Below are positions 1,120-58,869 of a stretch of DNA of 64,000 nucleotides, in pieces. Origin of the DNA: a virus (lineage: Duplodnaviria > Caudoviricetes); IMG/VR virus record IMGVR_UViG_3300005614_001084, positions 64,001 to 128,000 of that record; one strand, 5' to 3'. The position numbers were made by a program, and so were the translations under genes. The notes under the pieces were generated by a model that was given only the letters and a program-made list of their open reading frames with translations, was not told the origin of the DNA and made no database searches. Numbering within the stretch: the first letter of the stretch is position 1; every line of letters begins with the position of its first letter.

Positions 1120-4100
1120 TCAGTCTCCTGGTTCACCCGTCGCTACGCCACCACTGACCTGCGGAAGCTGGCCGCTGATGGTCCGAAGCAGCTCTACGGC
1201 CGAGCCGAGATGCTGCATGCTCTGGTACGCGACCGGATCGCGGCTTTGCTGCTGGCGCATCACGGCTTCTCGCTGCACCTCACTGAGCCGTCCGCCCGCG
1301 GCGCCGGTGGTCGTCATGCGAATGAGCTGCTCGGCTTCGGACTGGCTGAAGCCGCCGCCTGCCATGCTGCGGAACTGCGAGACAAGATCACCGCTACCCG
1401 AGACACCCATTCCGGAGAGATGCGTCTGAAGCTGACGCGCCACCTCGTCGGCCCCAGCGCCACCACGCTGAAGAATCGCCATCGCACGGCGAGCATCGAC
1501 CTGACGTCCACCGACGGTGATCCCGGCCTCGCTGAAGCTGTTGCCGGTCAGCATGCCGAGCGCAGTCTCCGCGCTCTGCGCGCCACCACGACGGCCGCCA
1601 CCGGTGAGCGCGCGCACCTGCTGCCGGATACCGGCACCGGCACCGAGCACTTCGCGCCCGAACTCGTCTCCACCCAAGCTCTCGCTGAGCGCGCGGTACT
1701 CCGCCGACGAGGTGTCCATGCGCGCGAGCTGCATCATGGTGTCCTGCGCCGCGGTGTTCAGGGACGAACCGCTCTGCGACAGATCGCGGAAGCGACCCGC
1801 CAGGGCACCAAACTGGCGCCCCATCGAAGTGTCGCCGAGGCGGCGGGCGAGCCGACTGTAGTCGGCACCTGTGCTGAGCCGGCCCTCGATCAGCTCGCGC
1901 TGACGACCTTCGTCGATCCCGAAACGCTCGAACTCCGATCCGATACCTCCGCCCGAGCGGATATTCTCTTCCATCTGCTGGATCATGGAACGCGCAGCAC
2001 GGCCCTCGGCCGAGCCCTCGTCGGCGTAGGCTCCGCCCTGCGCCATCACGTCCTGGCGAAGAAGCTCCAGCTCCGCTTGCTGGCCTGCACGATCGCCGCT
2101 CATGCCAGACATCCGACGGATGCGGCGCGTGAACATGTCGGAGCCACCGACCGAGCGTACGGCCTCCTCGCTGACGCCACGGAGCCCTTGGAGCTGCATC
2201 GCTGCCGCTGCGCCGCCCCCAGCCGCCCTCCGGCCCAAGGAACGCTCGATGTCTGCCTCGGAGTAGCCGGAGCGGCGCAGAAGGGCGGCCTGGGTCTCGC
2301 GCGCCCCGGCTTCGTCCATCGAAGCTCCTGGACCGCCTGCCTCACGACCCAGCCGTTCGGCGAGGTGGCCGCCACCGGTGATGAAGCTCGCCGCCTGATC
2401 GGCAGGCGTCATGATCTGCTCCATCTGACCGCTGCCCATACCGAGCATGCGCATGATGTCGCGGCCCATGCCTCCGAGCGTATCGCCGCCGCCACGGGCG
2501 TTCGCCAGGCCTGCTCGGGTCGGAGAGACACCACCGACACGCATCCCGTTCTGCGCCATGAAGGCGTCGACCGCGTTCGCCGAGGCCCCGCCGTTCATGT
2601 ACTGGTAGAAGTTCGACGCGTTGCCGCCGGCCGCAGCCATCACCTGCGCGTTCATGATGTCGCGTCGAGTCGCGTTCGCGTCCGCGCTGAGGCGCTGAAG
2701 CTGATTGGCGTCTGCACCGAACACCGCTCCCGATCTCGCCATCTGAGCGGAGTCGACCGCCTCCATGAGCTGCGACGCCCCCATGCCACGGACTCCTCGG
2801 ACCCCGCGCGCCGTCAAGCTCTCGCCCACGCTCATGTATCCGGTCTCGATGCCGAGCCCACGAAGCATGCGCTGGGCGAGAGGCGTTCCGAAGGCCTGAG
2901 ATCCAGACACCCCGGCACCGCTGACCCCAGAGCCAACGGAAAGCCGATCCATGTCCGACTGCGAAGCCTGTCCGATGCTCATCCGAGCCATGGCTCGGCG
3001 ATCTTCTGTCGTCATGCTGCTGGCGGTGACGCCGAGCACGTCGTTCATCGTGCGCTCGGCGAGCGACGAGATACGGGTGAGGAAGCTACGGCCCAGCTCG
3101 CGCGCACGCGTGACGCCCATCGTGTCGGACATCCCGTGTTCGAGATGACGCATGAAACCGTCGAAGCTGCGGTTCTCCGAGATGTCCTGCGACAGCGCCT
3201 GCTGACGACCCGACGCCATGCGATCGATGCTCTCCGACGATGCGATCGCGCCCTGATTGCGCATCAGGCTCATCATCATCTCGGACTGCGGCCGATCCAT
3301 GTGGAACCGTCGCTGGAGAACCAGGCTGGCGAGATCGTCACCCTGGTCGAGCACACGGTCGCCTACCATCAGGCGCATCATGCCGATCTGGGCAGCCATA
3401 CCGCCCTGCTCCATCACGGCGCCGCGCAGCATGCCCTCACGGTTCAACGCCCGAGCGCGACCCATGCCGCCGACACGTCCGTGAGCGGCTCGACTCACCT
3501 CGCCGGTGGTCAGGTCGCCGGACATCATGCGCTGCATCATGTCCTGATCGAGCCCGGTACCGTTAGCGTTCGACATCGCGAAGAGCGAGTACCGCCCCAT
3601 GCCGGTGCGACTGAACTGTCCCGCACGCTGAAGCATGTTCGTGGTGAAGGCTGCTATCGCCTCCGGACCCTGAAGACCTCCCGTTGCCTCCGACAACATC
3701 TCCTGGTTGATGGCACCCGAGCTGAGGGCCGCTCCGAGCGTCTGCGCGCCCCGAAGCGCACCCATGGCGCCCTGACGACCGAGCCCACCGAAGCCTCGGC
3801 TGATCTGCGAGCCCTGCGCACTGAGTGCGATCAAGCTCTGACGATCCATACCCGTGACGGCCTCGGCGCTACGCACCTCTGCCGCGAAGTTCGACTGATC
3901 GCTCGACCTGAAGATACCGCTCTGTTGCGCACCTCGGACGAACTGAAGCGCGTCCGTGAGCGTGCCGCCTAGCTCACGCTGCACGTCCCGAAGCGTGTTC
4001 AGCATCGTGCGGAAGCGCTGCGTGAACTGCTGCACGTCGCGCACCGCGGTGAACATGCCGGAGTCCGCGCCGCCCTGGACCAACGACGTCATCTCTTGGG

Positions 4101-4686
4101 CCGAGCTGAACGGACTGCGGCGCAGCTCGCCGCCCATCATCGATCCGATCTGACCCATCTGCTGCTGGCTGAAGCCGCGCCCGAAGGCGCCCTGCCCGCC
4201 CATGAACTGGAAGTTGTTGCGGAGCGTTGAGTTCAAGGCCGCCTGCTCGTGCATGCCTCCGGCGAACGCTCCTCCATAGACCTGAGCCGCTTGGCCCGCA
4301 GCGTAGAGCGGCAGACCCATCGCGGCCCCGCCCACGGCACCCATCGCGGCCCCGCCCATTCCGAAGCGGGCTCCCATCATCGCACCGCTGAACGGATCCA
4401 TCGGGATAGGCGCGAAAGCGCTCATCATACCGAGCCCAGCCATGCCGACGCCCATTGCGGTCGTGCCCAGGTTTCCCATGCGGGCCGCGACCTGCTCCCC
4501 GTACATCCCACCCATACCTCCACGCATCGCGCCGATCGCGCTGAGCTGGGGCATCTGGGGCGCACCCATCATCGGCATCTGGCCGCCGCCCATGCCGATC
4601 TGCTGGGCATAACCGCCATAGCCGGCGAACATGCCCATCTGCTGGCCCACCATGCCAGAGATCATCGCGGATGTGTACACAGTCAT
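1120..4686 (-). CDS. tape-measure-like / ejected virion protein (1188 aa, G/A/M/Q/R-rich, no Lys, Cys or Trp)
   Basis: Very long, predominantly helical-looking low-complexity protein with hydrophobic Gly/Met segments near the N-terminus, in a phage context. Confidence 0.6.
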   Translation of the reverse strand: MTVYTSAMISGMVGQQMGMFAGYGGYAQQIGMGGGQMPMMGAPQMPQLSAIGAMRGGMGGMYGEQVAARMGNLGTTAMGVGMAGLGMMSAFAPIPMDPFSGAMMGARFGMGGAAMGAVGGAAMGLPLYAAGQAAQVYGGAFAGGMHEQAALNSTLRNNFQFMGGQGAFGRGFSQQQMGQIGSMMGGELRRSPFSSAQEMTSLVQGGADSGMFTAVRDVQQFTQRFRTMLNTLRDVQRELGGTLTDALQFVRGAQQSGIFRSSDQSNFAAEVRSAEAVTGMDRQSLIALSAQGSQISRGFGGLGRQGAMGALRGAQTLGAALSSGAINQEMLSEATGGLQGPEAIAAFTTNMLQRAGQFSRTGMGRYSLFAMSNANGTGLDQDMMQRMMSGDLTTGEVSRAAHGRVGGMGRARALNREGMLRGAVMEQGGMAAQIGMMRLMVGDRVLDQGDDLASLVLQRRFHMDRPQSEMMMSLMRNQGAIASSESIDRMASGRQQALSQDISENRSFDGFMRHLEHGMSDTMGVTRARELGRSFLTRISSLAERTMNDVLGVTASSMTTEDRRAMARMSIGQASQSDMDRLSVGSGVSGAGVSGSQAFGTPLAQRMLRGLGIETGYMSVGESLTARGVRGVRGMGASQLMEAVDSAQMARSGAVFGADANQLQRLSADANATRRDIMNAQVMAAAGGNASNFYQYMNGGASANAVDAFMAQNGMRVGGVSPTRAGLANARGGGDTLGGMGRDIMRMLGMGSGQMEQIMTPADQAASFITGGGHLAERLGREAGGPGASMDEAGARETQAALLRRSGYSEADIERSLGRRAAGGGAAAAMQLQGLRGVSEEAVRSVGGSDMFTRRIRRMSGMSGDRAGQQAELELLRQDVMAQGGAYADEGSAEGRAARSMIQQMEENIRSGGGIGSEFERFGIDEGRQRELIEGRLSTGADYSRLARRLGDTSMGRQFGALAGRFRDLSQSGSSLNTAAQDTMMQLARMDTSSAEYRALSESLGGDEFGREVLGAGAGIRQQVRALTGGGRRGGAQSAETALGMLTGNSFSEAGITVGGRQVDARRAMAILQRGGAGADEVARQLQTHLSGMGVSGSGDLVSQFRSMAGGGFSQSEAEQLIRMTTTGAAGGRLSEVQREAVMRQQQSRDPVAYQSMQHLGSAVELLRTISGQLPQVSGGVATGEPGD

Positions 4687-4746: not shown

Positions 4747-5100
4747 ATGTCCCAGGACAATCGATGGAAGTGCCCGAAGTGCGACAAGATGAACATGCCG
4801 ACGAACCTCGCGTGCAGCGAGTGTGCGACCGCCAACCCGCAGGTGCAGCAGACCGGCGGGGTCGTGCTGGTGCCGAGGATCGGCAACGTGCAGGCGTACG
4901 TCACGCTCGAAGGCGACGGCATCCAGCGTCAGCCCTACGCAAAGTTCGGCCGGATCAAGGTCGGTGAGGATCCGCGTCCACTCAACCTCTTCAACATGGA
5001 GGAGGTTGCGGCGCTGCACGCTCTCACCGAGCAGGTCTTGCGTGAGGCGTACAGGATGCAAACGATCGTCGTGCCCGCGCTGATGGAGGAAAAGGGATGA
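4747..5100 (+). CDS. RanBP2-type zinc finger protein
   Basis: WKCPKCDKMNMPTNLACSEC = W-x-C-x2-C-x3-N-x6-C-x2-C. Confidence 0.65.
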   Translation: MSQDNRWKCPKCDKMNMPTNLACSECATANPQVQQTGGVVLVPRIGNVQAYVTLEGDGIQRQPYAKFGRIKVGEDPRPLNLFNMEEVAALHALTEQVLREAYRMQTIVVPALMEEKG

Positions 5101-5855
5101 ATCACGTCAACGTGATCGTGCTGTTCGGCGTGAAGGGCAGTGGCAAAGACACCGTCGGCCACTACCTGCACAACGAGCACAACTTCGCTCCCGACAGCTT
5201 CGCCTCGCCGCTGAAGAAGATGGTGAAGCTGGCGTTCCCCGACTTCACCGAGGTCGATCTCTACGGGCCCAGCGCAGGACGCGAGCGTCAGTACGCGCAG
5301 TACCCGAAGACCGACGACTGCCTGAAGTGCGGATCGGTTCTATTCGATAACGCTAAGTCGCCTATCGGAGCTGAGTTGATCTGTACAGCCTGCGGTTCCA
5401 CCTACCCGTACGACGTGAACCCAAGGATCGCACTACAAACGCTGGGCACCGAGTGGGGGCGTCGCCTCTACAAAGACATATGGGTCGACGCCGCGGTGCA
5501 GCGCGTCAGAGCCGAACGCCTGGACTGGCGCAAGCGGCTGTTCGGTCGTAACCAGACCTACTTCCCTCCACCCGGCTTCGCGATCGAGTTCGAGAACGAG
5601 CCGAAGTTCGTCTTCACGGACGGGCGCTTCGCCAACGAGCAGGTGCGATGCGCCGAGATGGGCGCGACAACCGTGCTACTCCTGCGGAAGCTGGAGGAGT
5701 CGGAAGACACCCACGCCAGCGAGGCCGAGCTGAAGACGATCCCGCGCGAGAAGTTCGACTACGTCCTCGACAACCGCGGCACGCTCGAAGAGCTGCCGAG
5801 CAAGATCGAGGAGATGCTCAAGGCCCTGCGAGATCCGGGCCCACCTCACCTATAA
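5097..5855 (+). CDS. deoxynucleoside monophosphate kinase with inserted zinc ribbon
   Basis: P-loop GVKGSGKDT, SFASPLK, RIALQTLGTEWGR, TDGRFANE and HASE motifs of T4 gp1-like kinases; CLKC...CTAC insert. Confidence 0.85.
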   Translation: MNHVNVIVLFGVKGSGKDTVGHYLHNEHNFAPDSFASPLKKMVKLAFPDFTEVDLYGPSAGRERQYAQYPKTDDCLKCGSVLFDNAKSPIGAELICTACGSTYPYDVNPRIALQTLGTEWGRRLYKDIWVDAAVQRVRAERLDWRKRLFGRNQTYFPPPGFAIEFENEPKFVFTDGRFANEQVRCAEMGATTVLLLRKLEESEDTHASEAELKTIPREKFDYVLDNRGTLEELPSKIEEMLKALRDPGPPHL

Positions 5856-5894
5856 GCAAGTGAGAGGCGCATCCTCCTTCGTGTTCTCTCCCCA

Positions 5895-5949
5895 CCGTGA
5901 ACCCGCAACGCAGGTATCCAGCCATGGGTGCCTGCGTTGCGGGGCACGG
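5895..5949 (+). other. long 5'-UTR stem-loop
   Basis: CCCGCAACGCAGGTATCCA / TGGGTGCCTGCGTTGCGGG forms a 19-bp stem with G-U pairs, plus an outer CCGTG/CACGG stem. It lies downstream of TATAAG at 5851. Confidence 0.6.
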
Positions 5950-5968
5950 CCTATTCGTTTGGAGATCT

Positions 5969-6628
5969 ATGAGCATCACGTTCGCCAAGACCGTCCACCG
6001 GACGAACCCCAGCCTCCTCGCCGAAGGCTCGCCCCGGCCCGAGCCGCTGGTGTTCAAGAAACAGCGCGGCAACGCGTACGAAGACGACTACGAGGACGAG
6101 TACGGGCTGTGGAAGCACGAGCATCCGATCATGGCTGAGGGTCCGATCTGGCTCTACATCATGACGTACGAATGGCCGAGCGAGAGGTTCGAGAAGCCGC
6201 GACATCGCTGGGCTTCCGATCTCATCGCGGTGTCGCCCTTCTTCGCCACCGACACCTCCATCATCAGCGCGATGAACAGCATGGGCGACTATCTCGAAGA
6301 GAGCTGGGACGGCCTCAATGATGCGGGGAAGGAGGCCGCGATCTGCGAGATGCTGATCGACTACGGCGTCAAACTCACCGTCATCACGAAGACCAGCACA
6401 AGAGCAAAGGGTCCGTTCAAGGGCTGCGCGGTCGAGGCTTCAGTCGCCAGCTTCCTGTGGGGCTTCGTCGCCGACCGTCAGGTCAACGCCATCGGCAGTT
6501 CGGGCTGGGACTTCCTGAGTGGAGACCTCGGGCTCGGCGAGCACAAGAAGACGCCCGATGGCTTCCAAGTCAAGGTGATCGACTGGTTGAACAACCGCTA
6601 CCCAGATCGTAAGGAGCATCACACGTGA
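5969..6628 (+). CDS. hypothetical protein
   Basis: GGAG RBS, typical codon usage. Confidence 0.65.
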   Translation: MSITFAKTVHRTNPSLLAEGSPRPEPLVFKKQRGNAYEDDYEDEYGLWKHEHPIMAEGPIWLYIMTYEWPSERFEKPRHRWASDLIAVSPFFATDTSIISAMNSMGDYLEESWDGLNDAGKEAAICEMLIDYGVKLTVITKTSTRAKGPFKGCAVEASVASFLWGFVADRQVNAIGSSGWDFLSGDLGLGEHKKTPDGFQVKVIDWLNNRYPDRKEHHT

Positions 6629-6939
6629 AAAAGGAACCGCCTCCTCTGAGCCAGTGGCAGCTTCTGCGAGCGAACCAGCTCGCGCTGAACAAGGAGGGAA
6701 TCGCGCTGCACGCCGGATACTTCGGTGATCGCCCCGCCGCCTACCTCTGCGCCGTAGTACCGGAGAAGGGTGGAGGCGTCCGGCTCGATCCCATAGCGTT
6801 ACTGCTCGACGAGACCATCATCGAGGAGTTCCGCACGAAGCTCGCCAGCATGGTGGGCCACGAGCTGGAGAGCCCACACACCCACGTGCTCCGCGACTCC
6901 GAAGACATGAAAGACCACGACCCCGAGGAGCCCAACTGA
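6625..6939 (+). CDS. hypothetical protein
   Basis: GTGA overlap with the previous gene, AAGGAG RBS. Confidence 0.6.
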   Translation: MKKEPPPLSQWQLLRANQLALNKEGIALHAGYFGDRPAAYLCAVVPEKGGGVRLDPIALLLDETIIEEFRTKLASMVGHELESPHTHVLRDSEDMKDHDPEEPN

Positions 6940-7163
6940 TGATCGCACATCTCACACCAGCCTACGGCAAGGACTACCGCGCCAAGCGAGAGATCGTCAG
7001 CACACTGAAGGGCGGTGGCGATTTCATCCTGAACGATCCCAGCTCACGCTGGAACAACCGACCGATCAATCTGCCGCAGCTTAAAGAAGCCGGCTACACC
7101 AGCGTGACCGTACGCTTCAACAAGCTGAAGCGCGTCACCTCCGTCACGCTGAGCAAGCTGTGA
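6939..7163 (+). CDS. hypothetical protein
   Basis: Coupled start/stop, GAGGAG RBS. Confidence 0.65.
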   Translation: MIAHLTPAYGKDYRAKREIVSTLKGGGDFILNDPSSRWNNRPINLPQLKEAGYTSVTVRFNKLKRVTSVTLSKL

Positions 7164-7299
7164 GCTACGGCGGCGACGTTGGAGAAGAGTGCGCGTGCTG
7201 TCACCAGATCATCAAGCTGGATTACGACGGCACCTACGAATGTGCCTGCACCGCGGGCGAATGCGACAACTGCTGCAACGATCACAGCGAGGAAGAACA

Positions 7300-7623
7300 A
7301 TGAGCTGGATCAGGCTCCGCGAAGTGAATCAGTGGAACGTGATCAGCTACTCGGAATCGACGGTTCTGACGCGAACCCTCAACGGCCACGGCCTCATCAA
7401 GCTCGAAGAGCGTTCGATGCCGGTACGATGGCCCGACGGCACGACTGAGTACATCGATCTCAAGAGCGTCAAGACCCAGGTCGACACGTACGACATGGGG
7501 TCGACCCACAAAACCGAGCAGACCCGCTTCGGTTTCTGGACCAAGGTCCACGGCCTGCTGCTCTGGGTCGACATCTGCGGAGTCGAGGTGCGCACCGATT
7601 ACCTCGGCAGGAACGAGCCGTGA
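7300..7623 (+). CDS. hypothetical protein
   Basis: GAGG RBS, protein-like sequence. Confidence 0.55.
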   Translation: MSWIRLREVNQWNVISYSESTVLTRTLNGHGLIKLEERSMPVRWPDGTTEYIDLKSVKTQVDTYDMGSTHKTEQTRFGFWTKVHGLLLWVDICGVEVRTDYLGRNEP

Positions 7624-8246
7624 ACGAGCGCTGCCCCAGCACGACAGTCACCGGCCTGCTCGAAGCTGCGGAGTCGAACTCGATGTTCGACTACTACAGC
7701 GATCGCTGGCGGCAAGACAGCGCATTCGGCCGCGTGGAGTGGGTCGGCACGATGCTAGGCCGCCTGGCGGACCGGAAGCTCGTCGACTGGTCCGGCGACA
7801 TGTCCGACGTTACGATCACCGAACTGGGCAAGAAGTATCTGGCCTGGTTGCGCGGCGGACGCCGTGGGCCCAACCCGTGTAGGAGTTCCGATGAAGCACC
7901 GTTGGTGGAGGTGGCGCGTACGGCGCCACAAGATCACAGTGATCGACAACGAGACGCAACGACTGACCGAGCCAAGATCACGGCTTCGGTGGCAGGCACT
8001 GCGCGTATCGACGGAGGAGTTCATCCTCCACGCCAAGCTCAACGTAGGCTACAACATCCGCCCGCTGATGTTCGTCGTTCGCAAGACCGACAACGCTCGA
8101 AGGCGGGCGCGACGCCGGCTCGTCAGCAGGTGATCAGTGCCAGCGCGCCGGCAGCCAGCCCACGGGGTAGCCGAACAGCGCGGAGAGCAGCCAGAAGCAC
8201 GCCACGACGATGATGACGGCTCGCGCAACGCGAGCCATGAGGAACC

Positions 8247-8807
8247 ATGAAGACCATCCTGAAGATCCGTAAGTCCGACGACGTGCTCGACGACACCGCA
8301 TACCCCGTCCGCAGACTCATCATCGAGAACGGACGGATCATCGATCACATCGACGAGAACAAGGAAGCCGCCTACAGCTACATCGGCATGCCTGGCAAGG
8401 GCAGCACGATGCACGACCTCGACATCTGGCTGTCCTACCGCTGCCGGCCCGACGTCCACCCGATGAACTTCCACGAGGCGCAAGAGTTCGGGTTCCACAG
8501 CACCGGAAAGTGGGAGGAGATCAACGATTCCTGGGGCATGATGAACCTGCTGCGCGCGGGTGAGCAACCGGTCGAAGGTCCGGTCGACGATAACGTACCG
8601 GAGAGCAAGATCTGCCGATGCCCCGCACCACACCCCGGCCACGTCCCGGTCCAGCACGTCGAGGGCTGTCACGTCGGCAAGACCATCGCAGCCGTGGGCT
8701 GCTCGTTCTGTGGTGCTAAGGCCGGCCAGCCCTGCGTCGCAGACGGAGGCACCTGGATCATGCCGGGCATCCACAACGCAGTCCGCAAGCTGCCCGAGGA
8801 CGCGTGA
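8247..8807 (+). CDS. hypothetical protein with C-terminal Cys/His zinc-finger-like region
   Basis: GAGGA RBS; CSFCGAKAGQPC...H motif. Confidence 0.6.
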   Translation: MKTILKIRKSDDVLDDTAYPVRRLIIENGRIIDHIDENKEAAYSYIGMPGKGSTMHDLDIWLSYRCRPDVHPMNFHEAQEFGFHSTGKWEEINDSWGMMNLLRAGEQPVEGPVDDNVPESKICRCPAPHPGHVPVQHVEGCHVGKTIAAVGCSFCGAKAGQPCVADGGTWIMPGIHNAVRKLPEDA

Positions 8808-9134
8808 ACGGCAACCCAACGATCGGCAAGACGCCGTCGGGCACTGGCTGGAAGGTCTACGTGATCGGCCAGCCCAACAGCCACTTCTCGGACTGGCGTG
8901 GATCGAACATGCGCATCATCCCGCTGCCCGGTCAGCCCAGTCGCGGCTTCACCTCACGGAGTACGCGCTGGAGCACCTCAACAAGTCGGTGCCGAAGGGC
9001 GAGGACGATCCCGACTATCGACGCTGGCTGAGGCGCTTCGACGGCTCGTTCATGACCGAAGATCGGTTCAAGAGCCTCGAAGAACGGGATGTGGTCTATC
9101 AAGAAGGAACCTGGCGGTTCCGGGAGAAGAAGGC

Positions 9135-9488
9135 GTGAAGTTCATCGTCGAGATCGAGCTGGGCAACGACGCGATGCAGACGAACCGGGACGTCTCCAAG
9201 GCGTTGCGTCAGGTCGCCAAGGAGGTCGACCACCAGGGCGCAATGTTCCGCAAGCCCACAGAGTTCAAGATCAGAGACCTCAACGGCAACACCGTAGGAC
9301 GCTACGAAACAGCCGACGAACCCAAGAAACCTGCCCGCGATAGCTACCCATCAATGGGCCAGAACCTACAGCTACTGGTTCACGTAGCTACGATCCTGAA
9401 AGACCGCCTGAAGGATCAGAGACTGTCTGAGCTATTCCAGCCCGAGGAGCTGGAGAGCCTCCACAAGATCAGCGCTTGGGCAAAGTGA
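9135..9488 (+). CDS. hypothetical phage protein
   Basis: FIVEIELGNDAM...IRDLNGNTVG motif common in small phage proteins. Confidence 0.6.
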   Translation: MKFIVEIELGNDAMQTNRDVSKALRQVAKEVDHQGAMFRKPTEFKIRDLNGNTVGRYETADEPKKPARDSYPSMGQNLQLLVHVATILKDRLKDQRLSELFQPEELESLHKISAWAK

Positions 9489-9522: not shown

Positions 9523-9810
9523 TCAGTCGTCTTCCTCGACTTCGATTTTGGTCTCGCCTCGCAGCGCCGACTGATGCTTCGGCTTCTTCATCACGTGCGA
9601 CATGTAACGCTGCACGATCGTCTTGCACTGCTGGCAAAGAAACGAGAACTCCACGATGTTCTTGTCGTCCATCTGGACCACGAGGCTCTTCGGCGGATCC
9701 GGGATCTTGCCGCCTCTCGCCATCTTCACGACTTCGTCGAGGCTTACCTCCGCCTCGTCCTCTCGCGGACAGCGCGTGCACTGCCGCTTGATCGCCAGGG
9801 TCGCGTTCAC
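9523..9810 (-). CDS. small CxxC protein
   Basis: CTRC...CQQC. Confidence 0.6.
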   Translation of the reverse strand: MNATLAIKRQCTRCPREDEAEVSLDEVVKMARGGKIPDPPKSLVVQMDDKNIVEFSFLCQQCKTIVQRYMSHVMKKPKHQSALRGETKIEVEEDD

Positions 9811-10025
9811 GGCTGCTTCTCCGTGGCCAGGTACATGATGTAGGTCTTCACGATGGCTCGTTCGATGTTGATCAGAGGGGAGGGGTTCGTACTGCCGTTG
9901 GTGCGCTGGCGCTCGATGAACCAGCGCTCGAACTTGGCGATCTCGCCGTTGAGCAGCTCATCAGCTCTTTCCGGCGGGAGCTGCTGCGGGAGCGGGCGGA
10001 TTTTGATTTCGATCTCCAGGTCCAC
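9807..10025 (-). CDS. hypothetical protein
   Basis: Coupled to its neighbours. Confidence 0.55.
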   Translation of the reverse strand: MDLEIEIKIRPLPQQLPPERADELLNGEIAKFERWFIERQRTNGSTNPSPLINIERAIVKTYIMYLATEKQP

Positions 10026-10437
10026 TGGGGCTCTCCTTCGCTACGGGCTTCACGTGACCGTTGCCGTTCGTCTTGGCAGCCGGGGCAGCCGGCTTGGCCT
10101 CGGTCTTCTGCGGTTCTGCCTTCGGCTCCGCAGCGGACGTGACCACCGTCGGAGTGGCGGGCACGACCGGCTCTTTCAGCAGCTCGGCGATGGGAGTGTT
10201 CTCCAGCCGCGTCAGCGAGGTCTGTAGCCCGTCCATGTACTCGACCAGGTCGGCCGAGGTCATCTCGATGTGGTCCGCCGGTACGCGGCCGTGGTCGCTC
10301 CTGGTGACGAACATCTCCGCCATGCCGCCATCGGCCGGCATGTAGTTCGTCTTCAGGTAGAGGACGAGCATCTTCGCCACCGCGATCTTCGACCGCAGTT
10401 CCGAGATCTGCCCGTTGATTTCGCCGACGGTTGCCAT
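9961..10437 (-). CDS. hypothetical protein, Pro/Ala-rich C-terminus
   Basis: ORF with typical codon usage. Confidence 0.6.
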   Translation of the reverse strand: MATVGEINGQISELRSKIAVAKMLVLYLKTNYMPADGGMAEMFVTRSDHGRVPADHIEMTSADLVEYMDGLQTSLTRLENTPIAELLKEPVVPATPTVVTSAAEPKAEPQKTEAKPAAPAAKTNGNGHVKPVAKESPSGPGDRNQNPPAPAAAPAGKS

Positions 10438-10439
10438 GG

Positions 10440-11126
10440 CTATGTGCTGAGGAAGGACCGAATACGGCCCTGTAGATCAGCTCCTGCTCCTGTGTCCTTG
10501 AGGATGTTCTTCAGCGGATAGATCGCCCACTTGCGGTCCACCCGAGCCTGGTCCAGTCGGTCGCCGGCTTGCGCGCCCGTCGCCTTGAGGATGTCCTCGG
10601 TGCGGCTGTGGATGTTGGACTCGAACAGGCCCCGACGGATGTCGCAGTTGCCGTCGAGGTTCAACCACATCCGCATCACGAGGCCTGCCCAACCCTGGAG
10701 CGTGAGGTGTCCGCCGACCTGGCCTGCGAGGTCCTTGGGGCTGACGGCGCGCTTGCAGCGCGGGCACAGCGCCGCCGTCTTCGAGACCCAGCGAAGGTCC
10801 AGCGGGCCCGAGCATGTTCGTCGAGCCCCGTTCTTCTCGACGAGGTTCGGGCAGAAGTACACCACGGCGTCTCCGCCACCCGTGGCCTGGCCCATGTTCT
10901 TCCACGCCGTGATCATGCCGGGGAACGCCTCGTTCACCTTGCGGCCCAAGAAGACCACTTCCAGCTTGTACTCCGCCTGGACCTGATCGAGCTGCGCCTC
11001 TTTGAACAGCGCGTCGAGCTTGCTCTGGACCTCGGCTTCGATGTGGAGATCGTCGGCGCCCTCGGCGTAATCGACCACCCCGTGCGGGACACGGCTCTTT
11101 CCGTCTCGACGTACGAAGTTGTCCAT
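10440..11126 (-). CDS. hypothetical zinc-binding protein
   Basis: Start MDNFVRR with AGAG RBS; CP...C...CPRC. Confidence 0.6.
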   Translation of the reverse strand: MDNFVRRDGKSRVPHGVVDYAEGADDLHIEAEVQSKLDALFKEAQLDQVQAEYKLEVVFLGRKVNEAFPGMITAWKNMGQATGGGDAVVYFCPNLVEKNGARRTCSGPLDLRWVSKTAALCPRCKRAVSPKDLAGQVGGHLTLQGWAGLVMRMWLNLDGNCDIRRGLFESNIHSRTEDILKATGAQAGDRLDQARVDRKWAIYPLKNILKDTGAGADLQGRIRSFLST

Positions 11127-11128
11127 GA

Positions 11129-11563
11129 TCAGCTCTTGGTCGAGGTGGCGACGGCGAGGGCCTTGCTCGCGGTACCGGCGTCGTGTGCCCCCATCATCTT
11201 CCCGCTCGCGGGATCGAAGGGGTAGTCCTTGCGCCCGACCAGCGGCTGCGACACCACCTCGACCGAGGACTGCACGGCGCGGACTGCTGCGGCGCCCAGG
11301 GCTTCCGACGCCGCCTTGACGTCGTTCTGAAGCACGACACGCCACAGGAAGCGGATGTTGTTGGTCTGATCGACGTAGAACCACTTGCTGACGTCGGTGC
11401 TCCACGGCTGTCCCACCGAGGCCAGCAAGAACTCGCTCATGGTCTCGTTCCAGAAGCTGTCCTTGGCGACGCGCAGGAGAACGATGACACGCCCGGGTGC
11501 CGTCTCGGTCTTCGCGATCGAAATGCCGGCACGCTGAAGAAGCTTGTTGAGGGCGATGGCCAT
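11129..11563 (-). CDS. hypothetical protein
   Basis: Operon spacing, GGAG RBS. Confidence 0.6.
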   Translation of the reverse strand: MAIALNKLLQRAGISIAKTETAPGRVIVLLRVAKDSFWNETMSEFLLASVGQPWSTDVSKWFYVDQTNNIRFLWRVVLQNDVKAASEALGAAAVRAVQSSVEVVSQPLVGRKDYPFDPASGKMMGAHDAGTASKALAVATSTKS

Positions 11564-11565
11564 GA

Positions 11566-12078
11566 TCAGACTCCCATGTCGATGATGACGCCGAACGTCG
11601 CGTCGTTGAAGTAGATCGTCGGACCGCCGAGAACGAGAAGCTTGTCGGGGTACTTCTCGTTCTCGTGGTAGCTCACGTTCATGCCGAGGAACGTATCGGG
11701 CTGCGAATGCTCCTCGATCCCGAAGTAGTCGGCGAAGATGTCTCCGGCCGGCGCCAGGATGCCGCAGACGCGCAGACGTTCGTTGCTGATCGTCTTGGTG
11801 GCGAGCCCGAGGTTGAGGTAGGGGTGGGAGTCGGGCTTGAACTCCTGAGTCAGCAGGCGGATCTTGCCCATGAGGAACTCCAGATCGACGTCGATCTTCG
11901 TCTCGGTCTTCGGCAGCACCGGCGAATCGTCCTCGTCCTCCATCAGCCGCGAGACGATGAACTCCTCGGGCGTGACCTCGACCTTCTGGATGCCGCTGAG
12001 CTGCATCACGCGCTTGAACAGCGACACGACACGCTCCACGCCCTTGGGCAGCGGCTCGTTGTGGACCCGCAGCTTCAT
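11566..12078 (-). CDS. hypothetical protein
   Basis: Start MKLRVHNE overlaps the stop of the RHH gene. Confidence 0.6.
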   Translation of the reverse strand: MKLRVHNEPLPKGVERVVSLFKRVMQLSGIQKVEVTPEEFIVSRLMEDEDDSPVLPKTETKIDVDLEFLMGKIRLLTQEFKPDSHPYLNLGLATKTISNERLRVCGILAPAGDIFADYFGIEEHSQPDTFLGMNVSYHENEKYPDKLLVLGGPTIYFNDATFGVIIDMGV

Positions 12079-12269
12079 CGATTCCCCGCGATCGTCTTCA
12101 TGATCTTGCTTCCGTGCTCTTTGATGTGGCGCATGTAGTGCGCCATGGCGTCGTTGATGACGCCGCTCTGCCCCCGAGGATGGTGTGCCGCCTGCTCGCG
12201 GATGAACTCGTGCAGATCGGGCAAGAACCGCACGGTCGTCGGAGGCGTCTTCTTGTCTCCACGGGGCAT
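12075..12269 (-). CDS. ribbon-helix-helix (Arc/CopG-like) transcription regulator
   Basis: TTVRFLPDLHEFIREQA...QSGVINDAMAHYM strand-helix-helix pattern, 64 aa. Confidence 0.7.
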   Translation of the reverse strand: MPRGDKKTPPTTVRFLPDLHEFIREQAAHHPRGQSGVINDAMAHYMRHIKEHGSKIMKTIAGNR

Positions 12270-12309
12270 GTGTATTCGTAGGAATACAAGGAATACACAT
12301 GACCGTCAA
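12270..12309 (-). promoter_or_regulatory. sigma70-type promoter with TGTATTC operator repeats
   Basis: TTGACG-17 nt-TATTCC; TGTATTC occurs twice directly and once inverted. Confidence 0.65.
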
Positions 12310-12588
12310 CTACGTCGGTGCGGCGCCCGTAGGCTCGCGCAGGTTCTGGAGCCCGGCGAGGTAGTCCTTGAGCCCGGGGAAGGCGGGGAAGAGGGCCTGG
12401 AGGCGCACCAGCACCCATTCGTGCATCGCTTCGAGGTCGTGGTCGGCGGTGGTGACGCCTTGAAGCAGCACGGCGTCCCGCAGCTCGCGCTCCAACTCGG
12501 TCTTGAGCCGGGGGTTCACCGCCAGCCAGTACGGCAGCCAGGTCCACCGAATCTCCAACGCGCCATCTCTGATCTGAACGAGCCTCAT
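12310..12588 (-). CDS. hypothetical protein
   Basis: Coupled ORF starting MRLVQIRDG. Confidence 0.55.
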   Translation of the reverse strand: MRLVQIRDGALEIRWTWLPYWLAVNPRLKTELERELRDAVLLQGVTTADHDLEAMHEWVLVRLQALFPAFPGLKDYLAGLQNLREPTGAAPT

Positions 12589-12917
12589 CGCGAATCCCCG
12601 CAATGCACGAAGCGGCCGTTCTGGATGAAGCCGTGCCACTCACACCCCTTCTCGCCGCCCTCGACGTGAATGCTCGGAGCGAACGTCAGCGTGCTGAAGT
12701 CGTTCCGATCGCCCGTCATCTCCCACGTCGCGCCGCTCGGGAACCAGTTCGTGAGAGCCGGGCCACCGTCGAGCGGATGACGCAGCGGTACGCTGAGGTA
12801 GTGATCGTGAATCGGACACTCGAAGACCATCACGACACCAACACGCCCGTTCTCCGAGGCCCAATGCGGGTCGGCCTGCGTCAGCAGTTCGAGCCGCTTC
12901 TCTCGCTCCTTCATCAT
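12585..12917 (-). CDS. DUF6527-like Cys/His protein
   Basis: FECP...W...TLTFAPSI...CEWHGFIQNG pattern. Confidence 0.55.
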   Translation of the reverse strand: MMKEREKRLELLTQADPHWASENGRVGVVMVFECPIHDHYLSVPLRHPLDGGPALTNWFPSGATWEMTGDRNDFSTLTFAPSIHVEGGEKGCEWHGFIQNGRFVHCGDSR

Positions 12918-19374: not shown

Positions 19375-19911
19375 TCAGGTCTTGTTGCGCAGGGTGCCCG
19401 GGTCTTCGAAGCTCTCGCCTCCCTCGTCCCAGGCCACCTTCATCTTGCCATCGTCCGTGACGTCGCCGGTGACGACTCCGGTACGAGGCGGGGCCGCGTT
19501 CTTCTCCCCCGGCTTCTGGGGCATCTGGACGCGCGCGCCCGGGGTGAAGGTGTTGCCGTTCTTCTCCATGTCTTCCTCCGTGATCTCGAACTCGAAGATG
19601 ATGTTCGGCCTCTTCTCGACGCCGTTCATCCGATCGATCATGTTCGCCACGACCATTCGGGCGAGCAAGCTCTTGGGTGTGATGGTGATGCGGATGTTGT
19701 CCTTGTTCTCAGGGTCAGACAAGGCCTCGACGCCCCAATCCTCCACCTTCTCTTCGGAAATGGACTTCAGGCCGATGTCGAGCATCGAGACGATCGTCCC
19801 CTTCATTGCCTCCAGAGCTTGCGGCGTGGGGTCGCGCTTGACGTAGCCTTCGAGGCCACGCCGGATGTACTCCTGTATGTAAGCCGTGCTCCTCTTGATG
19901 CTCTCGTCCAT
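19375..19911 (-). CDS. hypothetical protein
   Basis: GGAGG RBS. Confidence 0.6.
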   Translation of the reverse strand: MDESIKRSTAYIQEYIRRGLEGYVKRDPTPQALEAMKGTIVSMLDIGLKSISEEKVEDWGVEALSDPENKDNIRITITPKSLLARMVVANMIDRMNGVEKRPNIIFEFEITEEDMEKNGNTFTPGARVQMPQKPGEKNAAPPRTGVVTGDVTDDGKMKVAWDEGGESFEDPGTLRNKT

Positions 19912-19920
19912 GATCGCCTC

Positions 19921-20211
19921 CTAGTGCTTGCGCGGCTTCTTACGAGCAGCCGGCTTGCGACGGCTGATAGCCCGCTCGGGCATCGCTTCGATCTTCATGC
20001 TGGCGGCAGCGCGTCGCCACGCCTCTTCGAGGTAGAGGCTGAGGTCTTGGCCATCGGCCGGCAGGTCGATGGGGACCTTGGCCACGGCGCGCAGCTCTTG
20101 GTTGAAGAAGGGTACGGCGCCCTTCTTGATCACCAGCTCCACGCTAAGCGTGGCGGCGGGCTCGGCGCTGGTGCGCGGGATACTGTCCTTCAACGAACTC
20201 ACCTGTTGCAT
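19921..20211 (-). CDS. hypothetical protein
   Basis: GGAG RBS, basic C-terminus. Confidence 0.5.
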   Translation of the reverse strand: MQQVSSLKDSIPRTSAEPAATLSVELVIKKGAVPFFNQELRAVAKVPIDLPADGQDLSLYLEEAWRRAAASMKIEAMPERAISRRKPAARKKPRKH

Positions 20212-24910: not shown

Positions 24911-25308
24911 TCGTCCACTCCCTGGTAGACGCCGCCTGGGTTGTCGAGCTGCGGAACGAAGGTGTACGGCAGATCGTTGCGACCTCCGGGATCGAGCACG
25001 AGCGGCCGGCCCTTGTTCCAGCCCACGATGGCCTGGAAGCGCGGGATCTCCTGGCCGCGATTCTCGACGCCCTTGGCGAGCGCCTCTTCGTCGCTGAGGC
25101 CAGTGCGCCAGTCGATCTCCTTGATGAAGTCCTCGACGGTGCGGAACCGCATCTTCGAGCCGCCCTCGGCGATGCCGTTCTCCAGCGCGACCGCTTCGTA
25201 GATCACGAGCTGATCGTCGTCATCGTGCGTGTCGCCGTTGCTGGCGCAGCCGTGCACGAAGTAGATGCCGCCCTTGTAGTGGACGAAGTAGCCCTTCTCG
25301 ACTCTCAT
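24907..25308 (-). CDS. DUF1653-like protein
   Basis: GYFVHYKGGIYFV...LVIYEA...RTVEDF. Confidence 0.65.
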   Translation of the reverse strand: MRVEKGYFVHYKGGIYFVHGCASNGDTHDDDDQLVIYEAVALENGIAEGGSKMRFRTVEDFIKEIDWRTGLSDEEALAKGVENRGQEIPRFQAIVGWNKGRPLVLDPGGRNDLPYTFVPQLDNPGGVYQGVDE

Positions 25309-25892
25309 GGTGCCTCGAAGATGTGACGGAGGAGATTGCGATCGCTGTCGGTTATGCGGGGCGGGAAGCCGCCCGAGGTCGGTGACTGCACCGCACGCAT
25401 GATGCTGGACTCGAACGGATCGTGGTCGAGCCCGAGGCAGTGCCCCAGCTCGTGTTGCAGCACCAGCAAGGTGATCTCATCGGTACCGGTGTTCGAGGTG
25501 GTGATGTCGCAGTGCCGGCTGCCCGCGGTGAAGACGGCATCGCCTCCGGGGTCACGCCAGCCGTGCTCCGACGGCGCGCCGACCACCACGGTGATGTGAC
25601 AGATGCCGGCACTGCCCGGGGCGGCGTAATCGAGCACGTTGAGCCCCAGCCGGGTGTTCGTGGTGTTGATGGCGCTCTCCACCAGCGTGTAGGCGTGCTC
25701 GGTGCCGTCGGGGGCGTAGGAGCGCGGGCAGACGAAGATGGGCGTGTCCGAGGCGCCGAAGCCTGGTGTCTCCGCCATGAGCCCGGGCTCCGTGTGCGTG
25801 GTGACGCCGTAGATCACCAGCCCGCCGCAGACCAACGTCAGCAGTCCGATGATGATCGCCATGAACTTCCAGCTCTTGATGAAATCCGCCAT
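25305..25892 (-). CDS. membrane-anchored matrixin-type (metzincin) metalloprotease
   Basis: N-terminal TM; HELGHCLGLDH zinc motif and SIM Met-turn. Confidence 0.8.
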   Translation of the reverse strand: MADFIKSWKFMAIIIGLLTLVCGGLVIYGVTTHTEPGLMAETPGFGASDTPIFVCPRSYAPDGTEHAYTLVESAINTTNTRLGLNVLDYAAPGSAGICHITVVVGAPSEHGWRDPGGDAVFTAGSRHCDITTSNTGTDEITLLVLQHELGHCLGLDHDPFESSIMRAVQSPTSGGFPPRITDSDRNLLRHIFEAP

Positions 25893-25902
25893 GCTCTCCT
25901 CC

Positions 25903-26661
25903 TCAAATCGGGCAGTTACCGATTGCATCGAGCGCGATCTCGCGCTGCGCGTCCGCCCACTCTTCGCGGGTCTCGTTGTTGCTGTTGCGCTGCTCCGCCG
26001 GCTCGGCCTCGTGATCGGAGTCGAGCTTCCTGCCCTCTTCCCCCTCCACGTCGTGGTCGTACTCGCGGTCTGCGCTCTTCTCCTCGTTCTTCACGATCGG
26101 ATTCTCGCAGTGCGTACAGATGAGATTCTCGTCTTCGCCAGGCCCATCCCAGTCGTTGAAGTCGAGGCTGTCGAGATCGCTGGACCAGCTCTCCAGGTTC
26201 TCGCTCTTCTCCTTACAGTCCTCGGCCGTGGAGCTGCCCCCGGTGAACACTGCCTCGATGTTGTCGGCCGACTCCTGGTACTCCTGCGCCACCTCATCGA
26301 TCTCGTTCTTGAGATCTTCGATGATGCTCTCCAGGGCATCGGTCCCCTCTTCCGGGTCCCAATCGTCCGCCGCATCCTCGGCAGTCTCCTGCGCGGCGTA
26401 GATGCGGCTCAGCTTGTCCGACGACGTCATGTCCGACGGCCGGAACCTGCACTCGTTCCGCATGCAGCGGATGGTCTTGGGCCGCCGGTTGAACTTGATC
26501 CACCGGTAGCTGTCGCCGAGCACGCGGACGCGCTTGCGCTTCTTCTTGCCCGTGCGCTTGTCGACGACCGTCTGCATCTCGAAGCGAGACGGACGAATCT
26601 TGGCACCGCACTTCCGGCACTCCTGCTTCGTCTGGGCGTGCTTGACTTCCGTGATCTTCAT
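25903..26661 (-). CDS. hypothetical protein with basic zinc-binding N-terminus and acidic C-terminus
   Basis: CRKC, K/R-rich region, then a D/E-rich helical region. Confidence 0.65.
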   Translation of the reverse strand: MKITEVKHAQTKQECRKCGAKIRPSRFEMQTVVDKRTGKKKRKRVRVLGDSYRWIKFNRRPKTIRCMRNECRFRPSDMTSSDKLSRIYAAQETAEDAADDWDPEEGTDALESIIEDLKNEIDEVAQEYQESADNIEAVFTGGSSTAEDCKEKSENLESWSSDLDSLDFNDWDGPGEDENLICTHCENPIVKNEEKSADREYDHDVEGEEGRKLDSDHEAEPAEQRNSNNETREEWADAQREIALDAIGNCPI

Positions 26662-53037: not shown

Positions 53038-53718
53038 TCAGTCCCTACATCGATCGGCCGTGTAGACCTGAACCCTACTCCCACCTGTCCCTGTCATCAT
53101 GACCGGTCGGTAGCACCGAACCGCATCCTGATCGAGAGCGTAGAAGTGATTGTTCAGTAGCACGAAGCCGTCGTCTACCACCGAGGCGATCACCCGCGGC
53201 ATCGGAATGCCTCGATGCGGGTTACCGTCGTCTGTCGAGCCCCAGTTCATCGCACCGGGCAACGGGTCGCGTAGCGCGCCGGTCTCGAACAGCGTGACGG
53301 TCTCTCTCGCATAGTCCCAGTCGTCGACCCAGTTCCTCCAATCCGTCTGCTCGGGATCCATGCCGGGGTTGGTCTCCATCGTTCCCCACGGCAACGCACG
53401 CACCCAAGTCTGGTGCGGCGAAGGGGACGACGTGCGGTGCACGGCACAATAGTCTCGAATCTGATCTTCGAAACTGTAGGTGGAACCGGGATGCATCCGC
53501 AGATACCGGCGCCACCTTCGCAAGAGCACGTAGGCCATGGCTGCGTGCTCGGTCCGGTTCCTCCACCGATTCTCCGCCACGTAGCACTGCCCGAGCGCGA
53601 GCCGCGTGGAGTCGTTCCACGAGATGCTGGGCTCCGTACTGGCCTGTGCCTGGGCCTCCACGAGCCCGCTGCAAGCCAGCACGCTTCCCACGATCAAGAA
53701 CCCTAGGATCAATCTCAT
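53038..53718 (-). CDS. secreted protein (signal peptide), lysine-free
   Basis: Signal MRLILGFLIVGSVLAC...AQA. Confidence 0.6.
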   Translation of the reverse strand: MRLILGFLIVGSVLACSGLVEAQAQASTEPSISWNDSTRLALGQCYVAENRWRNRTEHAAMAYVLLRRWRRYLRMHPGSTYSFEDQIRDYCAVHRTSSPSPHQTWVRALPWGTMETNPGMDPEQTDWRNWVDDWDYARETVTLFETGALRDPLPGAMNWGSTDDGNPHRGIPMPRVIASVVDDGFVLLNNHFYALDQDAVRCYRPVMMTGTGGSRVQVYTADRCRD

Positions 53719-53836
53719 CACCACTCTCCTTTTTCGATCTCAGCACCAATGCTGGGAACGCATGACGCCGTGAGGCATCGGAAGATGGGCACACCTTCCT
53801 ATGCCATCTGGATCCGTTTGTCCAGCCTACGGACGA

Positions 53837-57614: not shown

Positions 57615-58652
57615 TCACCAGTTGACGGTGTAGGCCAGGACGCCGGTAGAGGAGTAGCACCGCAGGGTGCTGCCGCTGATGCAGAGACCACGGGCGGTCC
57701 AGTCGGTAGCGCTGCCGATCGGCCACGCCACAGCGTGATCGTGGAAGGCGCCATCGTCCGGAATCACGACATCACCAGGGCTTGGGCCCACGGTGGCGTC
57801 GCCGCAGTAGGTGCCCGACGAGTTGTGCGAACAGCTCATCGAGAAGCCGAGGATGTAGTGATCGCCAACCGGGCGTTCGAGCCCGAAGGCGCCGCCGGTG
57901 TCGTGGACGCAGGAGGCGCGGTGGCCATCGCTGTGGCAGGTTGCCGGAGGATTGAGATCGTAGGCTTCATCACCTACGGCACCGGCCCCGGTTTCACGCG
58001 GGAAGGTAGCGCTCACGGCGATCGGCTGCGTGAGGCCAGCGCCCCAGCGGGTGACCGAGCCGCCGTCAGTCCAGCACACCATCTCGCCCGCCGCACTGAG
58101 CCCACAACCCCGATCGAGGTCGCTGTACTCCGCGATGCTGTCGAGTATCAGCGTGCTGCTGCCATCGATCACCGCCACCATAGACGGCGTGTGGAACTCC
58201 GCGCACCACACCTCGTGGCCCCGGAGCGCGCAGGAGCCCGAGGCCGAGGCGAAGCCCGTCCCGAGCCGGCGGACGTCCTGGACCGGCGCCCAGCGCCCCC
58301 AGCACCACATCGTGCCGGCGCGGTCTAGCGCGCAGCGGCTGCCCGTGACGTCGACCGCTTCGCCTTCGGGGCGCGGCGGGCCGGCGTCGGCTTGGGCGTC
58401 CCGCCCTCCATCAGCTCCAACGTCACCAACGCTCGATCCAGCGTCCGCTGCGTCGGGTGGTAGTCCTGCATCAGCGCCGGGGTCTCCAGCGTCGGTGCCG
58501 GCGTCTTCTTGTGGCGCTTGCCACGCGTCTGCTTGGACTTGGCCATCACTCTCCATCCAGGCGTCGCCCATGACGCCTGCATCGGTCTGCGGTTGAAGAT
58601 TCATCTGCTCGGAACACCCGAGCAGGAGTAACGCGATCGTGAGTTGCTTCAT
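57615..58652 (-). CDS. myxobacterial-type lipoprotein with DAG linker and RCC1-like Cys repeats
   Basis: Lipobox LLLGC, repeated DAG motifs, CALDRAGTMWCWG and CGLSAAGEMVCW repeats; CTATAAG at 58671. Confidence 0.7.
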   Translation of the reverse strand: MKQLTIALLLLGCSEQMNLQPQTDAGVMGDAWMESDGQVQADAWQAPQEDAGTDAGDPGADAGLPPDAADAGSSVGDVGADGGRDAQADAGPPRPEGEAVDVTGSRCALDRAGTMWCWGRWAPVQDVRRLGTGFASASGSCALRGHEVWCAEFHTPSMVAVIDGSSTLILDSIAEYSDLDRGCGLSAAGEMVCWTDGGSVTRWGAGLTQPIAVSATFPRETGAGAVGDEAYDLNPPATCHSDGHRASCVHDTGGAFGLERPVGDHYILGFSMSCSHNSSGTYCGDATVGPSPGDVVIPDDGAFHDHAVAWPIGSATDWTARGLCISGSTLRCYSSTGVLAYTVNW

Positions 58653-58698
58653 GGGTTCCTCCTTCGATCGCTTATAGCCGGAATCCGGCCCTTCTTGA

Positions 58699-58869
58699 CT
58701 ACCGCAGCAGATCAACGCGATCAATGATCACGATGTCGGTGTGCGGCCTGTGAGAAATGGTGCGGCCGACGGGCGGCAGTTGCTGCGTGGTCCAGACGAC
58801 CACGCGATACTTCTTCGCCAGCTCCTTGAGATCAGAGGCGAGTGACTTCATCTCCGCGTAGTCTCTCAC
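58699..58869 (-). CDS. short protein resembling a DnaB helicase C-terminal fragment
   Basis: LKELAKKYRVVVWTTQQL and DIVIIDRVDLL. Confidence 0.45.
   Translation of the reverse strand: MRDYAEMKSLASDLKELAKKYRVVVWTTQQLPPVGRTISHRPHTDIVIIDRVDLLR

Follow-up and report, generated by a model that had tools for sequence, protein, structure and literature searches.

Lysine is absent from a very probable tail tape measure protein and depleted in its baseplate hub and in predicted exported proteins of a phage lineage

A lysine-free gene and its tail module

We analyzed a 64,000-nucleotide stretch of phage DNA (the window), which spans bases 64001-128000 of the IMG/VR virus record IMGVR_UViG_3300005614_001084 (hereafter G000; 172,310 bp, 63% guanine plus cytosine, GC). 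Close to the start of the window lies P0001, an open reading frame (ORF) that very probably encodes the tail tape measure protein (TMP) of a contractile-tailed phage (myovirus) and that belongs to a family without annotation. An initial annotation, made from the sequence alone, had described it as a tape-measure-like protein of 1188 amino acids (aa) without lysine (K), cysteine (C), or tryptophan (W), without stating its strand. Our recount gave 0 K, 0 C, and 0 W, alongside 110 arginines (R), 98 methionines (8.25%), 198 glycines (16.7%), 93 glutamines, and 8 histidines. The gene is on the minus strand (Table 1), and the plus-strand reading contains stops. The frame is real and coding, as judged from the GC at codon positions 1, 2, and 3 (0.68, 0.54, and 0.79) and from the existence of 120 full-length homologs. 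A 920-codon ORF opposite P0001 was dismissed as the usual shadow frame of GC-rich DNA.

The crude gene set of G000 contains 4.2% Lys, with K/(K+R) = 0.36. At this proteome Lys rate, the probability of finding no K in 1188 residues is ~9e-23, and at this K/(K+R) the probability of finding 0 K among 110 basic residues is ~5e-22. Even under a mutation-only expectation at 63% GC (K/(K+R) ~0.12), the probability for P0001 is still ~1e-6. The cytoplasmic proteins of the phage had been called Lys-rich, which was overstated, as they are Lys-normal overall, although many replication-type proteins do contain 6-10% Lys. About 280 P0001 codons are one substitution away from AAG (CAG 87, GAG 46, ATG 98, ACG 24, AAC 23, and others); Lys codons must therefore arise often and be lost. 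A recent single-step switch from AAR to AGR was rejected, given that just 3 of the 110 Arg codons are AGR; hence, any Lys-to-Arg replacement is old or has since been recoded. A lysine desert is a lysine-free stretch of at least 150 residues or at least 50% of a protein, and here it extends over the whole 1188 aa.

We infer the tape measure role from an all-alpha fold, from the identity of structural look-alikes in BFVD, and from a gene order that ends in a baseplate hub, all of which agree with the initial description. The AlphaFold2 (AF2) model of P0001 has 58 helices and no strand of at least three residues (predicted local distance difference test score, pLDDT, 73; predicted template modeling score, pTM, 0.63). 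Foldseek found nothing for this model in the PDB. In BFVD it returned one homolog and then almost exclusively tape measure or minor tail proteins, as weak matches (E 2e-4 to 3e-2, TM 0.1-0.2). Named neighbors of P0001 in a protein language model (Atlas) are TMP families at 0.87, which we treat as a lead only. The 120 homologs that we found in a large protein database are ~1130-1330 aa long, and all are metagenomic, on contigs of up to ~200 kb. Neither megablast nor tblastn detected a relative of P0001 among 50,697 cultured-phage records, and none was found in species genomes. A scan of 37 members of the P0001 family matched no TMP family (the curated ones being PF10145, PF06791, and PF20155 in Pfam, and the tape measure groups of PHROGs). 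A comparison of P0001 to PDB sequence profiles gave nothing informative, the variable half producing weak coiled-coil or helical-bundle matches.

P0001 can be divided into three regions (Table 1). The first 145 residues are almost wholly Gly, Met, Ala, and Gln. AF2 confidence is low in this region, and its hydropathy maxima fall at residues 73-97 and 108-131. By analogy with T4 gp29, residues 1-145 are a candidate membrane-inserting part. A conserved helical core and a variable helical half follow.

The gene order TMP, a gene of 66-87 aa, a gene of ~360-410 aa, and a hub gene of ~1010-1230 aa is conserved in at least eight relatives (including loci L036, L037, L038, L079, and L080). The corresponding module of Burkholderia phage BcepMu consists of the TMP, gpU, a 69-aa gene, and the gpD hub. 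The 1191-aa hub of G000 is 53% identical to its L037 counterpart and matched nothing in Pfam or PHROGs. It nevertheless shows the hub fold of tandem beta domains. These domains (residues 13-150 and ~650-770) align with baseplate hubs with Z scores of 13.3-15.8 over 167-202 residues (VIA-align), and the top 14 matches are all hub or needle proteins (Mu gp44, 1wru; the pyocin R2 hub, 6u5h_C; phi812; cyanophage A-1(L); and VgrG-like proteins). In G000, ~88 kb separate the TMP gene from those of the sheath (PHROG 2839) and the tube. In T4, too, the tape measure is encoded with hub genes and apart from the sheath. A 1062-aa protein upstream in L037 was considered as a sheath and ruled out (BLASTP E 0.05).

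Lysine content among homologs, virion proteins, and exported proteins

To place the absence of Lys in P0001 within its family, we counted basic residues in the homologs. They contain 0-68 K, with K+R roughly constant (~120-145); hence, the family is not Lys-free as a whole, and the uniformly Lys-free family that would have refuted the initial annotation is not what we see. Only one of the 120 homologs contains Cys, and Met stays at 4-8% whatever the Lys state. The lack of Cys and the excess of Met are therefore family traits, whereas the lack of Lys is not. Homolog Lys is aligned to P0001 Arg in 32% of cases, against a background of 9%; at alignment column 233, for example, 63 sequences have K and 56 have R. 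Sixty-two of 119 homologs have K/(K+R) below 0.05, and 21 have no K at all. In a tree of the conserved core, Lys content is clade-structured, with at least 8-15 state changes: counts are 50-68 K in an outgroup clade and 9-52 K in a nested clade with 23 members, and several small clades with 17-33 K sit inside clades with 0-8 K.

GC content does not account for this variation. Loci at GC 0.62-0.63 have TMPs with 37-63 K, and the TMP of the lowest-GC locus (0.572) has 3 K. Across loci, TMP K/(K+R) and GC are scarcely related (Spearman -0.14). BcepMu, at GC 0.629, has a TMP with K36/R58, a hub with K35/R27, and an Rz protein with K7/R17. P0001 is thus depleted beyond composition, as homologs of the same GC and BcepMu hold 36-63 K. 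The lack of Lys in P0001 is neither structural nor compositional, and the earlier statement that GC bias alone cannot explain it holds.

We then compared G000 to eight whole related records (G001-G008) by reciprocal best hits; proteome K/(K+R) is 0.36-0.42 in all of them. This comparison led to several observations. First, K/R in the TMP is 63/83, 66/75, 41/87, 37/83, and 40/100 in relatives with normal Lys content (K-normal), compared to 0/110 in G000 (Fisher p 1e-8 to 1e-19). Second, K/R in the hub is 52/61, 52/74, 48/75, and 57/67 in the four K-richest relatives, compared to 12/106 in G000 (Fisher p 1e-7 to 1e-10). Third, p < 0.005 is not reached by any of the remaining orthologs. Those without a comparable shift include the gene between TMP and hub, the sheath (26/39 in G000 versus 24/54 and 15/25), the tube, tail proteins of 1245, 1345, and 862 aa, and the replication genes. 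Fourth, K/(K+R) in the TMP and in the hub are correlated (rho 0.85, n = 17 loci). The ~50 Lys of K-normal hubs are spread over the entire protein, whereas those left in the hubs of Lys-depleted (purged) lineages lie mostly at shared columns (138, 349, 356, 655, 671, 1068, 1170, and 1172). This is what a hub would look like if every dispensable Lys had been removed.

Lys is also missing from predicted exported proteins. Apart from P0001, the Lys-free ORFs of G000 are all predicted envelope proteins, save two short ORFs that resemble shadow frames, and most Lys-free ORFs in purged relatives also have an N-terminal signal or anchor segment. In G000, a spanin-like protein, which carries a signal peptide and is anchored at its C-terminus, has K0/R14, and three smaller Lys-free proteins have N-terminal hydrophobic segments. 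Two predicted lipoproteins lack Lys as well (Table 1), and six lipobox proteins of purged genomes together have K2/R112 in 2003 mature residues. In the membrane-anchored metzincin, both Lys precede the anchor, and the 164-aa remainder, which probably faces the periplasm, has K0/R8. By contrast, Lys is kept (K10/R9) in a protein whose N-terminus is acidic and bears the anchor; its C-terminal domain is probably cytoplasmic.

The link between an N-terminal hydrophobic segment and a Lys-free remainder is strongest in two genomes whose TMP has no K. In G000, half of the proteins with such a segment are K-free after it, versus 4/165 others (Fisher p 2e-5), and in G003 half are K-free versus 1/180 others (p 4e-7). 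The association is also seen in G006 (TMP K6, low; p 0.002), G007 (K3; p 0.011), and G008 (K1; p 0.009), and it is not significant in G004 (K0; p 0.35) or in G005 (K12, intermediate; p 0.1). In the K-normal genomes, 0/5 (G001) and 0/6 (G002) proteins are K-free after the segment. Both clear exported proteins that we found in K-normal lineages retain Lys, namely a G002 protein (38023; ~K5/R0) and a lipoprotein metzincin in L030 (K4/R15).

Table 1. Features of the tape measure locus and predicted exported proteins (positions in the window unless stated otherwise)
Feature	Position	Strand	Basis and details
Tape measure protein gene P0001	1120..4686	-	1188 aa, ATG start, K0/C0/W0; ORF and recount, homologs, model, gene order
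P0001 N-terminal Gly/Met/Ala-rich region, residues 1-145	4252..4686	-	Charge-free stretches 1-54, 70-96, 108-145
P0001 conserved helical core, residues ~140-560, family signature	3007..4269	-	Most (near-)invariant alignment columns; pLDDT 80-93
P0001 variable helical C-terminal half, residues 561-1188	1123..3006	-	Low column conservation
Conserved small ORF, 68 aa, immediately downstream of P0001	911..1117	-	Gene of 66-87 aa at the same position in L036, L037, L038, L079, L080
Baseplate hub, 1191 aa	G000 55948-59523 (~4.5-8 kb before window start)		~5.6 kb downstream of the TMP gene
Membrane-anchored metzincin-type metallopeptidase	25305..25928	-	PF00413 Peptidase_M10, E 1.6e-6; HELGHCLGLDH, then SIM
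Predicted lipoprotein, 228 aa, K0/R23	53038..53724	-	Signal ends ..VLAC; no Pfam family
Predicted Cys-rich lipoprotein, mature 332 aa, K0/R15	57615..58724	-	Internal start MKQLTIALLLLGC; lipobox scan; no Pfam family

Relatives of both predicted lipoproteins occur in G004 and G006. The Cys-rich one contains 15 Cys, is rich in Asp, Gly, and Ala, and has a weaker relative in G003. Relatives of the anchored metzincin are present in G003, G004, G006, and G008, with a lipoprotein form in L030; possible roles for the enzyme are lysis, superinfection exclusion, and envelope remodeling. The phage also encodes a transfer-messenger RNA (tmRNA) at L006 4895-5281 on the minus strand (G000 130895-131281), with the tag peptide ANDSSYAQARAA. 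The lipoboxes, the spanin-like gene, and this tag weakly hint at a two-membrane host rather than a Pup-bearing actinobacterium.

Several neighboring genes deserve mention. An opposite-strand block at 4747-9488 (+), which includes a deoxynucleoside monophosphate kinase (PHROG 139; 5097-5855), separates the TMP gene from its conserved upstream neighbors (9523-14572). A kinase of the same family stands beside the TMP gene in L038, L079, L080, and the P0113 contig; hence, the interruption is old. The putative tail tube gene, outside the window at G000 155480-156187 (-), encodes 235 aa that are 58-78% identical across the family and has 0-3 K in every lineage, K-normal ones included; the BcepMu tube has 12 K in 174 residues. 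In K-normal L038, the hub module is followed by a Lys-rich protein (19698-22484, +; 919-928 aa, 84 K) with a GNAT acetyltransferase domain, and a small GNAT gene lies close to the TMP gene in L036.

Possible causes of lysine loss

We consider it probable that the tape measure fills the tail tube and enters the periplasm and that this lineage replaced dispensable Lys in periplasm-exposed parts under Lys-directed selection. Following the T4 gp29 analogy, the tape measure would fill the tube, anchored on the baseplate hub, until infection drives it out into the envelope of the host. Its uncharged Gly/Met-rich N-terminal segments could there enter the inner membrane. T4 releases its gp5-gp27 hub into the periplasm, after which the tape measure becomes exposed and makes up the channel (bioRxiv 10.64898/2026.03.06.709160). 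Of the virion, therefore, the tape measure and the hub would be what reaches the periplasm while the cell is alive. Taken with the exported proteins, this would make exposure to the periplasm the shared feature. The phage lineage may thus have replaced, mostly by Arg, each dispensable Lys in protein parts exposed to the host periplasm: the tape measure, the hub, signal-peptide proteins and lipoproteins, the spanin-like protein, and the ectodomain of the anchored metzincin. Cytoplasmic proteins, or those that meet only the outside medium (sheath and fiber-like proteins), keep normal Lys. As the agent, we favor either an endopeptidase with cleavage after Lys or a transpeptidase for which the epsilon-amino group serves as acceptor, so that the protein becomes linked to peptidoglycan. 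The pressure would vary in strength among lineages and presumably from host to host.

The initial annotation had proposed selection against Lys in a protein that enters the host envelope. Its three-part reading is supported within reach of sequence analysis, and the proposed selection would now extend to the hub and to most predicted exported proteins, but not to sheath, fiber-like, or replication proteins. We infer periplasmic exposure and selection by a Lys-directed host periplasmic activity from this distribution. More speculatively, and with the balance somewhat against it, Lys exclusion might be a mark, readable from sequence alone, of phage protein parts that enter or reside in the periplasm, and might report an undescribed Lys-directed envelope activity of certain hosts. 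Such an enzyme would cut the incoming tape measure, hub, and any exposed phage protein, or capture them covalently at the epsilon-amino group. It would amount to a new layer of anti-phage defense, or at least a hazard, that is gained and lost among related hosts and that phages evade by replacing Lys with Arg throughout.

Several points weigh against selection in the periplasm. Signal peptides and topology were assigned by our own hydropathy and regular-expression rules rather than by a trained predictor, and gene calls were crude, being based on GC at third codon positions (GC3). The contrast with exported proteins of K-normal lineages is based on only two clear proteins, and both whole K-normal genomes (G001 and G002) are a distant outgroup, so shared ancestry is possible. 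P0001 itself found no family in Pfam (E <= 1) or PHROGs (E <= 0.1), no TMP model among them, and the model of the hub is poor overall (pLDDT 49). In addition, K/(K+R) varies continuously over the family, zero being its mode, and does not separate into two distinct states, and the hub, at ~0.10, is near the mutation-only expectation of ~0.12.

Among the alternatives, the one that survives best, though we think it unlikely, is escape from Lys tagging in the cytoplasm during assembly, in which a Bil-type conjugation or pupylation would act on the hub/tape measure complex. Bil conjugates a ubiquitin-like protein to the central tail fiber, the assembly initiator that recruits the tape measure (bioRxiv 10.1101/2023.09.04.556158), and the purged virion proteins are exactly the tape measure and the hub. 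Lysine deserts of Mycobacterium phages have likewise been proposed as an escape from pupylation (PMC10665810, PMC13696103). Tagging in the cytoplasm would not, however, be expected to purge predicted exported proteins and ectodomains while Lys on the cytoplasmic side of an anchor is retained, and other virion proteins assembled in the cytoplasm are unchanged. The host, moreover, seems to be two-membraned and not a Pup-bearing actinobacterium. A ubiquitin-like conjugation in the cytoplasm, one of the causes that the initial annotation had listed, now looks less likely than one acting in the periplasm.

Physicochemical adaptation to the medium, such as an alkaline habitat in which Arg keeps its charge where Lys does not, appears slightly less likely again. 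Lys-to-Arg replacement has been reported in secreted enzymes of alkaliphiles, the pH of the periplasm tracks that of the medium, and the effect here is confined to extracytoplasmic parts. Yet virion proteins that are permanently exposed to the medium (the sheath and the tail proteins of 1245, 1345, and 862 aa) show no shift between purged and K-normal lineages, and the trait switches between close relatives.

We regard neutral drift as improbable. Lys and Arg would then be interchangeable in a low-complexity protein, and GC-biased mutation would have driven Lys to zero. The near-constant K+R, the continuum of K/(K+R), and the hub value close to the mutation-only one fit such drift, as does the scarcity of conserved Lys positions: in the K-rich homologs themselves, K occupies half or more of the sequences at no more than 5 columns. 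Against it, relatives of the same GC and BcepMu hold K/(K+R) at 0.29-0.47 with no GC correlation, and the many homologs below 0.05 or with zero K lie well under a neutral expectation that is already ~1e-6 for P0001 alone. Drift is also at odds with the ~280 codons poised one step from AAG, and it leaves unexplained why the hub and unrelated exported proteins are purged in the same genomes.

Self-immunity, in which the phage's own anchored metzincin is the hazard and exposed proteins are kept free of its target residue, is very improbable. An anchored metzincin with a K-free ectodomain occurs in G000, G003, G004, G006, and G008, and tblastn was negative in K-normal G001 and G002. The enzyme is missing, however, from purged G007 (TMP K3) and from G005 too, and K-normal L030 has a lipoprotein metzincin of its own (HELLHSILGIEH). 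Lysine specificity is not known among metzincins. Cleavage of tRNA-Lys by an anticodon nuclease, or another translation-level cause, was rejected, as it would hit all late proteins and the sheath and fiber-like proteins keep Lys; the idea that Arg passes Sec or the tail tube more easily was rejected as well, since the hub is not threaded unfolded and a membrane that is positive outside should be easier to cross for Lys than for Arg.

Comparison with known systems

Like T4 gp29, P2 gpT, and BcepMu gp44, P0001 is long and all-helical, is encoded beside hub genes, and has uncharged segments that possibly insert into membranes. The BcepMu gp44-gp47 module contains the same genes as the module described here, with the small and mid-sized genes in reverse order. 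Unlike known tape measures, P0001 has no TMP match in Pfam or PHROGs and no cultured-phage relative, and its content of Gly, Met, and Gln is extreme; unlike BcepMu gp44, which has 36 K at the same GC, it has no Lys. With some 120 members, on contigs that reach ~200 kb, the family of P0001 is a large tape measure family without current annotation. Its hub resembles Mu gp44, P2 gpD, T4 gp27, and the N-terminal region of VgrG in its beta domains and in the position of its gene downstream of the tape measure gene. It differs from these proteins in being three times longer, with large helical and low-confidence insertions. If Lys loss follows periplasmic exposure, local K/(K+R) would be a simple marker of ejected or exported proteins in uncultured phages, including tape measures and hubs too divergent for profiles.

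The Bil system offers a parallel, in that a host system modifies the tail-tip protein that starts assembly, and loss of Lys from the hub and the tape measure would be a plausible escape. Unlike the cause favored here, Bil is cytoplasmic and would not account for Lys-free exported lipoproteins and ectodomains.

The closest comparison is with lysine deserts (Szulc et al. 2023, PMC10665810; review, PMC13696103), which share with P0001 a long Lys-free stretch in which Arg is retained and which have been read as avoidance of a Lys-directed process. Their enrichment in Mycobacterium phages has been reported and attributed to pupylation, without a GC control (PMC10665810, PMC13696103). If selection in the periplasm is the correct reading, the present case would compare relatives with GC controlled and point to selection, not composition, as the apparent origin of a desert, a test that the field review calls missing (PMC13696103). 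It would also shift the lysine-desert idea from cytoplasmic tagging to the periplasm, with a Lys-directed hazard acting while the tail core crosses the envelope. Published deserts concern tagging by ubiquitin or Pup in the cytoplasm, and the effect of GC has not been set apart in them; here, relatives of the same GC serve as the control, the purge tracks predicted exposure to the periplasm, and the host seems not to be an actinobacterium. What is new is this same-GC control, the restriction of Lys loss to parts with presumed periplasmic exposure, and the finding that the tape measure and the hub are among them, and the case is a compartment-specific form of the lysine desert.

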